Positions 23,602 through 24,999 of a DNA stretch of 64,000 nucleotides are shown piece by piece; the first letter of the stretch is position 1; every line of letters begins with the position of its first letter. Made by a program: the position numbers and the translations under genes. Below the pieces are notes generated by a model that saw only the letters and a program-made list of their open reading frames with translations, ran no database searches and was not told where the DNA came from. Source of the stretch: Nitrospirae bacterium GWF2_44_13 (GTDB taxonomy: Bacteria; Nitrospirota; Thermodesulfovibrionia; Thermodesulfovibrionales; UBA1546); the NCBI GenBank assembly GCA_001805105.1, contig MHEE01000015.1, positions 208,778 through 272,777 on the forward strand. The letters run 5' to 3'.

Positions 23602-23898
23602 TCATCCGCAGCAGTTACCTCCTGACTCAACACCGCAGTCACAGGAAGGCGGCCCTCCTGTTATCATGCCGTTAATTATTGCCGCTGCGCAGCCTACGCC
23701 TAAATTAACCTTTATGGCGCCGAATTCACAGTTATTGGCGCACGCCCCGCACTCCATGCACCTGTCCCTGTCAACAACAATGGCCTTTTTGTCACGCATT
23801 AAAAAAACTCCATGCGGGCATACATCAACGCACTTGCCGCAGCCCGTGCATTTCTCCTGAAAAAATTCAAGTGTCACAACATCGGCTATGTATTTCAT
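23602..23898 (-). CDS. hgcB: Mercury-methylation ferredoxin HgcB
   Basis: 2x[4Fe-4S] motifs CTGCGKCVDVCP and CMECGACANNC, plus the C-terminal vicinal cysteines GGNCCG. It lies 24 nt downstream of hgcA on the same strand. Confidence 0.88.
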   Translation of the reverse strand: MKYIADVVTLEFFQEKCTGCGKCVDVCPHGVFLMRDKKAIVVDRDRCMECGACANNCEFGAIKVNLGVGCAAAIINGMITGGPPSCDCGVESGGNCCG

Positions 23899-23922
23899 CT
23901 GTAATATCCCTTTATATCCAAC

Positions 23923-24999
23923 TTATATAATTCCCCATTGCGAGAGTCTGTACATAACTAATATTAACAGAGAAGTGGCTGTCGCAGTCAAATAAACAGG
24001 AACACCTATTTTGAGTTCTTTCTTCACACCAGACATGTTTGTAAAGGTTGTAGAGCCCGTGAACTGAAGCGCTATATATGAACTTGCAAGAGGGAAGAAG
24101 ATATACGCTGCCACAAGAGGCAGCAGGCTACTATAATGCCAAAAACCGCCAATGCCTTGCATTAAAGCAAATACCGCGATTACACCTGTCAGCCAACCCT
24201 TAACAGCAAAAGACCTGAAAGGAATAAAGGGAAGCAGAAGAGGCGTCATGAAGGCGCCTGAAAAAACTGCCGTCAACCCGAAAATCAAAAACGGCATGCC
24301 CTCTTCCCATGCGTCTTTAAACAGAATGCCTGACGGTTGGATTCCAAATAACAGCAGTATAATCAGGCCAAAGAGCGGAAACTTTTTCATGGCTGGATTA
24401 ATCTCCATTGGCGTAAGCACAAGCCTGTCCATCATGTTGAACCGCACCAACCGCATCTCAGGCGTTTTGATATACCCTGCCCTGATATATGCCGGGATAT
24501 CTTTTGCATGAACAGGGCCAAAGTAAACCCTGAAGCCTGTCCTTTGCTGAACTATCCGTGCATTTACACCTACTGCGCCAAGCTGCGGAACGATTATTCT
24601 TCTGTGAGCGACTACGTTGTGCAGATTGATTTCATTGATACGGCTGATAAGCTCATCGGTTCCGAATGTGCCTTTGCCGGCAGCGCACCAGACATTGATG
24701 CCCTTTGTATCAAGAACAATTATCCAGGCATTCAGCCCTTTTAATTCCCTTCTCAATATGTCAAAACTCAGCTTGTAGTTTGCGGTTACAAAGACATCTG
24801 ATTCCCTATCAGGCTCACCAACAGCATACAGTCCCGGACCGACCGTGTATCTCATGCGGAGAGAGCTTATCCTGCATCTGATTTGCCCAAAATGGTCAGT
24901 CCATGTCCACTCTGATGAAACCTTGCTGACTGCCGGCTGTCCTGCCGCTTTTTTCACCCCGAGCGGTCGGGGCAAGAACGATATTTTTTCAATGCCCAT
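23923..24999 (-). CDS. hgcA: Mercury-methylation corrinoid protein HgcA
   Basis: Diagnostic cap-helix motif GINVWCAAGKGTFGT in a CFeSP-like N-terminal domain, followed by ~5 predicted TM helices. SD AGGAG lies upstream. Confidence 0.9.
   Translation of the reverse strand: MGIEKISFLPRPLGVKKAAGQPAVSKVSSEWTWTDHFGQIRCRISSLRMRYTVGPGLYAVGEPDRESDVFVTANYKLSFDILRRELKGLNAWIIVLDTKGINVWCAAGKGTFGTDELISRINEINLHNVVAHRRIIVPQLGAVGVNARIVQQRTGFRVYFGPVHAKDIPAYIRAGYIKTPEMRLVRFNMMDRLVLTPMEINPAMKKFPLFGLIILLLFGIQPSGILFKDAWEEGMPFLIFGLTAVFSGAFMTPLLLPFIPFRSFAVKGWLTGVIAVFALMQGIGGFWHYSSLLPLVAAYIFFPLASSYIALQFTGSTTFTNMSGVKKELKIGVPVYLTATATSLLILVMYRLSQWGII

Follow-up and report, generated by a model that had tools for sequence, protein, structure and literature searches.

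An intact hgcA-hgcB pair of the Nitrospirota clade and its genomic setting

Two adjacent minus-strand genes in a 64,000-nucleotide stretch of DNA (the window) from Nitrospirae bacterium GWF2_44_13 resemble the mercury-methylation genes hgcA and hgcB, and the original prediction took them for such a pair in a sulfite/sulfate-reducing organism that draws its methyl group from the Wood-Ljungdahl pathway. Related modules occur in other proteins, in that the corrinoid-binding Rossmann-like domain of the CFeSP large subunit AcsC (4DJD, 2YCL, 4C1N) is homologous to HgcA, and the fused HgcAB-like proteins (NF043039), whose carriers tested to date do not methylate Hg (PMC10087281), contain homologous corrinoid and ferredoxin modules. 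The question raised by the locus is whether the two genes are a true hgcAB pair, and what the pair would do in this host. The open reading frames lie exactly where they were predicted, with products of 358 and 98 amino acids and a 24-nt spacer, and our analysis indicates that they are very probably a functional, co-transcribed hgcA-hgcB pair of a Thermodesulfovibrionales-type Nitrospirota clade.

Family membership and fold of the two proteins

The profile search that had been proposed as a check placed both products above the cut-offs of their NCBIfam equivalog models, with 399.7 bits for HgcA on NF040863 (cut-off 275) and 122.7 bits for HgcB on NF040864 (cut-off 99; runner-up family 56 bits). 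On the paralog models the hgcA product remained below the cut-off, scoring 202.1 bits for the HgcAB-like fusion (cut-off 285) and 74.9 bits for AcsC (cut-off 306). Its corrinoid domain is recognised by PF03599 (48.4 bits) and matches 4djd_C in a phmmer search of the PDB (E 1.4e-10). The cap-helix region within the hgcA ORF, GINVWCAAGKGTFGT, includes NVWCAAGK at residues 102-109, which agrees at every position with the high-stringency pattern of Capo et al. (PMC10087281), N[V/I]WC[A/S][A/G/S]GK with a strictly conserved Cys (Cys93 in ND132). The cap-helix cysteine, which had been read correctly, is Cys105 and has no exception among 103 homologs. AcsC, in contrast, has a Thr aligned with Cys105 in place of the Co-ligating Cys, no membrane domain and an N-terminal [4Fe-4S] domain of its own.

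About five transmembrane helices had been predicted after the cap helix, and hydropathy analysis gave five hydrophobic segments (residues 207-228, 234-261, 265-287, 291-313 and 329-350). A usable AlphaFold model (pLDDT 82.5) was obtained from a 103-sequence alignment, whereas 18 sequences gave a pLDDT of 56.5 and that model was discarded; the usable model contains five long helices (residues 197-219, 227-254, 264-282, 292-315 and 323-354), and both methods point to a C-terminal membrane domain of five predicted transmembrane helices. The cap-helix segment (residues 101-110) is the lowest-confidence part of the model, with a mean pLDDT of 49, as expected since the cofactor is absent from the model. 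The best Foldseek match is the ND132 HgcAB model 9a0b_A (E 5.5e-20, 37% identity), followed by CFeSP large subunits (including 4c1n_G and 2ycl_A) that align over the corrinoid domain only, with an rmsd of 2.2-2.4 Å over about 126 columns. A sequence search of the PDB with HgcA returned CFeSP chains only, and the ND132 integrative model surfaced by the fold search alone.

In HgcB, the two cluster motifs are CTGCGKCVDVCP (residues 17-28, with Cys17/20/23/27) and CMECGACANNCE (residues 47-58, with Cys47/50/53/57), CMECGAC is present and the C-terminus is GGNCCG. The cysteines are in exact register with those of ND132 at an offset of -3 (ND132 positions as in PMC7305189); Cys70, 13 residues past Cys57, is the equivalent of ND132 Cys73, and 93 of 98 relatives have a Cys there. 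The tail carries Cys86, Cys88, Cys96 and Cys97, a pattern common to 85 of the 98 relatives, so that terminal cysteines such as ND132 Cys94/95 are present, and the vicinal pair of the original prediction is Cys96/Cys97. Glu replaces Pro after the second cluster motif, as it does in 28 of the 98.

Parks et al. 2013 and Smith et al. 2015 reportedly characterised HgcA and HgcB of ND132 (Pseudodesulfovibrio mercurii, Desulfovibrio desulfuricans). The ND132 proteins are a genetically and biochemically characterised mercury methylase (PMC7305189, PMC11588087), and the window pair resembles them in being two genes, in combining a corrinoid domain with a predicted five-helix membrane domain (essential in ND132) and a cap helix with the essential Cys, and in the two [4Fe-4S] motifs, the Cys73 equivalent and the C-terminal vicinal cysteines of HgcB. 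It differs from them in that HgcA is about 37% identical, HgcB ends in a tail with four cysteines (CxC...CC), not two, Glu stands for Pro after the second cluster motif, and there is no co-transcribed upstream ArsR2 regulator. The host also differs, as it belongs to Nitrospirota, a phylum without an experimentally verified methylator; validated methylators come from Desulfobacterota, Firmicutes and Euryarchaeota, with no Nitrospirota tested (PMC10087281).

Gene layout and the upstream region

Table 1. Features of the hgcAB locus and of the metabolic genes in the window (positions of the window)
Feature	Position	Strand	Evidence or remark
acsC	256-1599	plus	NCBIfam 605.7 bits; paralogous corrinoid protein
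acsB	1698-3896	plus	NCBIfam 1012.6 bits
cooS	3980-5977	plus	NCBIfam 571.5 bits
Convergent tail-anchored coiled-coil gene	22509-23594	plus	stop 7 nt from hgcB stop; context only
hgcB, 2x[4Fe-4S] ferredoxin	23602-23898	minus	98 aa; NF040864 match, cysteine positions
hgcA-hgcB spacer, 24 nt	23899-23922	minus	weak Shine-Dalgarno AAGGGA 8 nt before hgcB ATG
hgcA, corrinoid protein	23923-24999	minus	358 aa; NF040863 match, motif and hydropathy, AlphaFold, Foldseek
hgcA/mutS divergent intergenic region, 152 nt	25000-25151		alignment of nine genus-level upstream regions
hgcA Shine-Dalgarno AGGAG	25009-25013	minus	
Conserved block TTTCTGGCGATAAA	25025-25038	minus	
Invariant AT-rich element ATATATTATACTG	25066-25078	minus	TATAAT on plus strand
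mutS, divergent neighbour	25152-27731	plus	Pfam MutS domains I-V; context only
dsrN, CobB family	36864-38306	minus	453.6 bits
DsrD-like ORF, 87 aa	38432-38695	minus	Pfam DsrD E=0.055, 14.2 bits (cut-off 24.2); canonical position
dsrB	38769-39839	minus	TIGR02066, 492.5 bits
dsrA	39868-41100	minus	TIGR02064, 539.9 bits

hgcB lies directly 3' of hgcA in 94 of 98 related loci, mostly with a 4-nt overlap, and the gap in this genus is mostly 24-33 nt. In the window the two ORFs are separated by a stop codon and the spacer, with no fusion, and they are presumably carried on a single transcript. The ATG at 24999 is likely the true start of hgcA, and is preferred because AGGAG stands 9 nt upstream of it and residues 1-20 show conservation across relatives 355-357 aa long; the public gene call, 344 aa from a GTG at V15, is probably too short. 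For the same two reasons, a good Shine-Dalgarno sequence and a conserved N-terminus starting at this ATG, an hgcA extended further upstream or containing selenocysteine was considered and rejected.

The start of mutS is most likely the ATG at 25152, which leaves 152 nt for the control region of about 150 nt that the two divergent genes were predicted to share; the neighbour in the mutS position varies among other species of the genus. A dS estimate is available for six loci of the genus, and in five of them the 135 nt upstream of hgcA are 77-91% identical, as against the 62-72% expected from hgcA dS. The invariant AT-rich element could be a -10 box, a promoter assignment that we infer. A simple promoter scan gave no sigma-70 match on the minus strand upstream of hgcA, the terminator-like matches of a simple scan were within chance and inside coding sequence, and Rfam gave no riboswitch or other RNA family near hgcAB, the TPP riboswitch and tRNA-Pro of the window lying elsewhere.

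The pair was also predicted to have no flanking regulator of the arsR/merR type, and indeed no HTH regulator ORF flanks it and no ArsR, MerR or HgcC regulator is adjacent. Nothing in the genome scored above the cut-off for HgcC (NF040962), and the four ArsR copies of the genome are all distant from hgcAB. An ArsR-type upstream neighbour was seen at about 15 of the 80 related loci scanned; a regulator-free hgcAB is the usual state among relatives and no peculiarity of this locus. Expression appears to depend on the conserved upstream region without a dedicated cis-encoded regulator.

Distribution, selection and host metabolism

Phylogenetic placement had been proposed as a further check, and the tree sets 96 HgcA rows apart from the fused HgcAB-like paralogs and AcsC (SH-aLRT 98), with long branches to the fused forms. 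Its reference set comprised the 80 closest loci, all from MAGs, with fused paralogs and AcsC; the named verified methylators stand outside it, so it is the NCBIfam model and the Foldseek match that connect the window HgcA with ND132. Within the tree the window HgcA belongs to a genus-level clade (support 98) with LacPavin_0920_WC70_MAG_43_14 (Nitrospirae bacterium) and UBA8922 (Nitrospiraceae bacterium), which are the closest records among the best 80 loci, at 85% HgcA identity. MAGs of Nitrospirae/Nitrospirota with hgcAB are known from McDaniel et al. 2020 (PMC7438021) and from the Hg-MATE catalogue (PMC10087281); the window locus has the same clade and gene order with no difference of substance, and represents another species of the genus-level group. 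The pair is genuine, intact and ordinary, a typical member of this described group. For paddy soils, lakes and groundwater, Nitrospirota are repeatedly listed as abundant putative Hg methylators, and the locus adds one more clean, complete hgcAB example but no new biology.

hgcAB is common in the order, where roughly a third of the species have it, and its distribution mostly follows the clades: 54 of the 151 species genomes examined for the order encode HgcA, as do six of the seven in the genus. Fused HgcAB-like paralogs occur within the same order in four genomes (G055, G077, G107 and G020; families f8 and f9). In the genus dN/dS is 0.08-0.20 over both genes (0.13-0.20 for hgcA, about 0.09-0.18 for hgcB); both are under purifying selection and have been retained vertically. 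The gene order around hgcAB is kept in one sister species (G024), while in another (G047) a deletion of about 2 kb took hgcB together with the catalytic portion of hgcA and part of the convergent coiled-coil gene. The cultured Dissulfurispira thermophila (GCA_009176125.1) has hgcAB of the same clade, annotated as 'hypothetical protein', with hgcA as JZK55_20780 and hgcB next to it.

The host, an anaerobe with a small genome (1.99 Mb, completeness 100%, contamination 0.34%), has one true hgcA copy. Misbinning or contamination was considered as a source of hgcAB and rejected, given the 472-kb contig with uniform GC, the low contamination and the synteny in the sister species. The predicted acsDCB-cooS cluster is present at the left end of the window, beginning with the end of acsD (3-212), and is preceded, immediately before the window starts, by acsE and acsD. 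With these carbonyl-branch genes (acsB, cooS, acsC, acsD and acsE) and the methyl-branch genes fhs and metF, the Wood-Ljungdahl gene set is complete-looking. From the predicted dsrABDN cluster, dsrA, dsrB and dsrN were recovered, whereas the proposed dsrD, whose product serves as a marker for the reductive direction, is a divergent sub-threshold match and weakly confirmed; no DsrD scored above the cut-off anywhere in the genome. The remaining genes of dissimilatory sulfate reduction, sat-aprBA-qmoABC (on contig C13) and dsrC, are all present. The presence of these genes, of dsrAB and of the full CODH/ACS operon supports the description of the host as a sulfate-reducing putative methylator, although gene content alone does not separate sulfate reduction from sulfur disproportionation. 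Nitrospirae methylators have been reported with dissimilatory sulfate reduction and CODH subunits (PMC7438021), and the window genome has the same package.

Proposed function and alternative readings

The organism had been predicted to be a sulfate-reducing Hg methylator with a Wood-Ljungdahl methyl source; the two gene sets are there, but the methyl source is not supported. With purified HgcAB, Zheng et al. 2024 (PMC11588087) found that the HgcA corrinoid is methylated by SAM, not by methyl-THF, whereas AcsC is methylated by methyl-THF via AcsE, and thus a Wood-Ljungdahl methyl source is at best indirect. With SAM as donor, the location of hgcAB 18 kb from CODH/ACS has no demonstrated functional meaning and should not be taken as a methyl supply line; the sulfate-reduction and Wood-Ljungdahl genes describe the lifestyle of the host and no direct methyl supply for HgcA. 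The genome contains metK and cobS, and the latter makes corrinoid assembly possible.

By analogy with ND132, the two [4Fe-4S] clusters of HgcB would reduce to Co(I) the corrinoid that membrane-anchored HgcA presumably carries in its N-terminal domain, and S-adenosylmethionine would then methylate this corrinoid. Cys105 would serve as the lower axial 'Cys-on' ligand, and the methyl group would pass from the corrinoid to Hg(II), while Cys70 and the C-terminal Cys86/88/96/97 of HgcB may handle substrate and product. Methylmercury production by the host is likewise expected from this analogy: the hgcA-positive organisms tested to date all methylate Hg, carriers of the fused form excepted (Capo et al., PMC10087281).

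That the hgcA ORF encodes a CFeSP-like or fused-HgcAB-like paralog unable to methylate is practically out of the question. Its N-terminal domain does match PF03599 and AcsC, a real AcsC is encoded as well and fused paralogs exist in the order, but we exclude this identity, which the original prediction had named as what would refute it, on the profile scores, the separate ORFs, the canonical motif with its Cys, the Foldseek match and the placement in the tree. Improbable, too, is an intact pair whose expression in situ is effectively nil or very weak and which makes no measurable contribution to methylmercury. Even in ND132 HgcAB amounts to about 0.0004% of total protein (PMC11588087), the locus has no dedicated regulator and, in the simple scan, no consensus promoter, and hgcAB is dispensable, because one sister species has lost the pair by a recent deletion. 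However, the upstream 135 nt exceed the neutral expectation, both genes have ribosome-binding sites, and a dN/dS of 0.1-0.2 indicates that the two proteins are under selection and are therefore made.

Rather unlikely is a true HgcAB whose selected role is not Hg methylation but halomethane dehalogenation or another corrinoid-dependent transfer of methyl or halide, with Hg as a side reaction. A 2026 preprint (10.64898/2026.04.26.720869) reports CCl4 dechlorination by heterologously expressed HgcAB and growth of model methylators on the reaction. That the pair is under purifying selection and persists in the genus implies a benefit, the genes next to hgcAB included no mer or ars genes, and HgcAB carriers are not more Hg-resistant than non-carriers (PMC7305189). 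The dehalogenation role, however, comes from a single preprint with no independent confirmation, and no feature of the locus points to halomethane metabolism; moreover, a role other than Hg methylation is compatible with a functional hgcAB pair, which we consider the best explanation, and not exclusive of it.

We also propose, tentatively, that this genus of small-genome freshwater and groundwater Thermodesulfovibrionales, with hgcAB that would be vertically inherited under purifying selection behind a conserved, regulator-free upstream region, may offer a natural comparison with and without the pair. The sister species G047, with its clean deletion sparing the promoter, and Dissulfurispira thermophila might together allow a first culturable test of methylation in Nitrospirota and of the role of HgcAB, and the hgcAB of D. 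thermophila could supply the experimental methylation test that is missing for the phylum.

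The hgcAB pair and its family assignment

Re-reading both ORFs in the sequence confirmed the coordinates, motifs and spacing first described for the pair, with hgcB beginning 24 nt after hgcA. An AGGAG lies 9 nt before the hgcA ATG at 24999 and residues 1-20, MGIEKISFLPRPLGVKKAAG, are conserved among relatives of 355-357 aa, and therefore the public gene call of 344 aa, which starts at V15, is probably too short. [quoted passage not shown] In HgcB the CxxCxxCxxxC motif occurs twice (17-27 and 47-57), Cys70 follows the second copy by thirteen residues, and the tail carries four cysteines (86, 88, 96 and 97), a tail seen in 85 of 98 relatives; Glu instead of Pro follows the second motif, likewise in 28 of the 98. 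The cysteines are in exact register with those of HgcB from Pseudodesulfovibrio mercurii ND132, at an offset of −3. The defining features of HgcA and HgcB listed in the literature (PMC7305189, PMC10087281, PMC11588087) are all present.

Features of the window discussed in the text
Feature	Position	Strand	Description
NuoE-, NuoF-, NuoG/HoxU-like genes	6023-11127	plus	directly after cooS
small ferredoxin-like gene	8426-9016	plus	within the 6023-11127 module after cooS
hgcB	23602-23898	minus	98-aa ORF with CMECGAC, C-terminal end GGNCCG
hgcA	23923-24999	minus	358-aa ORF containing GINVWCAAGKGTFGT
block TTTCTGGCGATAAA	25025-25038		intergenic; near-invariant in 8/9 aligned loci
block ATATATTATACTG	25066-25078	minus	TATAAT on plus strand; kept in 9/9 aligned loci, shifted closer to the ATG in L015
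'dsrD' ORF	38432-38695	minus	87 aa, between dsrB and dsrN, canonical position

HgcA scored 399.7 bits against the NCBIfam HgcA equivalog model (cut-off 275) and stayed below the cut-offs of the fused HgcAB-like model (202 bits, cut-off 285) and the AcsC model (75 bits, cut-off 306), whilst HgcB scored 122.7 bits against its own equivalog model (cut-off 99); the NCBI pipeline would name both genes automatically. Pfam found only generic CdhD and Fer4 domains on the pair. The host genome has only one true hgcA, its second match being AcsC.

An AlphaFold model of HgcA built from an alignment of 103 sequences reached a pLDDT of 82.5 and a pTM of 0.71 (an 18-sequence input gave a pLDDT of only 56.5), and it predicts an N-terminal domain of alternating beta and alpha elements followed by five long C-terminal helices. 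The cap-helix stretch is the lowest-confidence part, as expected without the cofactor. The top PDB match in Foldseek was 9a0b_A (E 5.5e-20, 37% identity over 333 columns), an integrative model of the ND132 HgcAB complex, followed by CFeSP large subunits, whose matches are confined to the corrinoid domain (rmsd 2.2-2.4 Å); a sequence search of the PDB found no experimentally solved HgcA. The pair is tied to ND132 by the curated HMM together with this match in fold. By every feature that can be read from sequence the pair belongs to the HgcA and HgcB families, and corrinoid binding and activity are predicted.

Phylogeny, distribution and selection

At 82-90% identity, the nearest public HgcA proteins belong to Nitrospirae/Thermodesulfovibrionales MAGs, and several of them are annotated as 'mercury methylation corrinoid protein HgcA' already. 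The closest named genomes among the 80 closest loci listed are Nitrospirae bacterium LacPavin_0920_WC70_MAG_43_14 and Nitrospiraceae bacterium UBA8922. A maximum-likelihood tree (quick search, LG+C20) was computed from 102 rows, namely 96 HgcA, four HgcAB-like fusions from the same order, a single divergent HgcA-like sequence and the window AcsC, with no experimentally verified methylators among them. All 96 HgcA rows are split from the other three types (SH-aLRT 98), and therefore the window HgcA does not group with the fused forms or AcsC, the placement that would have refuted the original prediction. It falls within its genus clade (98), which is sister to genus g13 of family f7 (98) inside a mostly Nitrospirota group. 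The pair adds one more species to the Nitrospirota hgcAB group that is already on record.

HgcA was found above cut-off in 54 of 151 species genomes of the order and in six of the seven species of the window's genus, and hgcB is the gene immediately after hgcA in 94 of 98 related loci. Both genes are clearly under purifying selection within the genus (dN/dS 0.13-0.20 for hgcA, 0.09-0.18 for hgcB). Synteny is fully kept in the sister species G024, and in genus g3 of the same family and in other families hgcAB lies in different neighbourhoods.

In another sister species of the genus, G047 (L028, G047:C20 5858-6366; approximately window 22740-24720), hgcA is left with codons 1-93, which run directly into the convergent coiled-coil gene at codon ~77; a deletion of about 2 kb took out hgcB entirely, along with the cap helix and the membrane domain of HgcA. 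The block upstream of hgcA remains intact there, and the promoter-side gene is not mutS. Some other members of the order, in family f3 and in genus g75 of f4 (L009-L012 and L014; G102, G015, G112, G061 and G131), have an HgcA that groups with the Syntrophales/Bacteroidota/Victivallaceae type outside the Nitrospirota clade, which looks like a separate acquisition and fits the patchy history known for these genes; an ArsR-type gene lies upstream of hgcA in G102 and G015. Families f8 and f9 of the order include carriers of fused HgcAB-like proteins of 395-432 aa (L113-L115 and L117; G055, G077, G107 and G020), and G020 has a true hgcAB as well.

Neighbours and upstream region

The original prediction of no flanking arsR/merR-type regulator holds, the flanking ORFs being a coiled-coil gene and mutS with no HTH gene on either side, as does divergence from mutS over ~150 nt, which is 152 nt given the likely mutS start at ATG 25152. 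The four ArsR-family genes of the host are all on other contigs, and no HgcC scored above cut-off in its genome. In 80 related loci, the nearest upstream ORF is ArsR-type in only 15, MarR-type in 10 and AbrB/MazE-type in three; hgcAB without an adjacent regulator is the common state. Downstream, hgcB and the convergent coiled-coil gene end with just 7 nt between their stop codons (23595-23601), too little space for a terminator between the genes, so that any terminator must sit inside the opposite gene.

Upstream conservation was compared across six genus loci with a dS estimate. The 135 nt before hgcA are 77-91% identical to five of these, against 62-72% expected from synonymous divergence, and conservation persists where the neighbour is not mutS; at the sixth, more divergent locus (L015, G058) identity by alignment is 39%, below the 52% expectation. 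The conserved intergenic region (25000-25151) may serve as promoter, operator or leader. The ATATATTATACTG block is a candidate -10 element, and a simple scan upstream of hgcA found no full sigma-70 promoter.

Host metabolism, methyl donor and a cultured relative

The host genome (1.99 Mb, 18 contigs, 44% GC, 100% complete, contamination 0.34%) encodes sat-aprB-aprA-qmoA-qmoB-qmoC on contig C13, dsrA, dsrB, dsrN and dsrC, acsE-acsD-acsC-acsB-cooS followed by NuoEFG-like genes, and fhs and metF. This gene content supports the view of the host as a sulfate-reducing, Wood-Ljungdahl-bearing putative methylator. Sulfate reduction and sulfur disproportionation are not separable by gene content. The host prediction agrees with the account of Nitrospirae methylators by McDaniel et al. 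(PMC7438021). The module after cooS resembles a soluble NAD(P)H/ferredoxin-linked unit attached to the CODH/ACS operon. The ORF proposed as dsrD has the canonical position, but its match to Pfam DsrD is below cut-off (E=0.055, 14 bits, cut-off 24.2) and no DsrD exceeded the cut-off anywhere in the host genome; the ORF encodes either a diverged DsrD or another small protein of the winged-helix type. Elsewhere in the host genome, outside the window, a second gene of the AprA type appears split between two adjacent frames (G000:C12:266015-267654), its halves covering profile positions 1-314 and 350-616 and neither reaching the family cut-off; this may reflect a pseudogene, a frameshift or a split paralog.

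The proposed Wood-Ljungdahl methyl source, tied to co-location with CODH/ACS, is not supported. Zheng et al. 2024 found that the corrinoid of purified HgcAB is methylated by SAM and not by methyl-THF, acetyl-CoA, serine, glycine or methionine, and state that the methyl-THF paradigm is overturned (PMC11588087). The host has metK and therefore the donor SAM is available; any Wood-Ljungdahl link to HgcA would be indirect, via methionine synthesis, and a full-length metH was not found in the host genome. The 18 kb between hgcAB and the acs operon on a 472-kb contig is without functional weight.

No Nitrospirota has so far been demonstrated to methylate mercury (PMC10087281), and the native role of HgcAB is debated, a 2026 preprint proposing halomethane dehalogenation (10.64898/2026.04.26.720869). 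A practical lead for the phylum's methylation question is the cultured Dissulfurispira thermophila, which has an hgcA of the same clade (68% identity) and an hgcB overlapping it by 4 nt; our literature search found no paper linking this organism with hgcA. Its hgcA (L124, BLAB01000001.1, 3001-4220) is called as a 305-aa 'hypothetical protein JZK55_20780', a call that probably begins too late.
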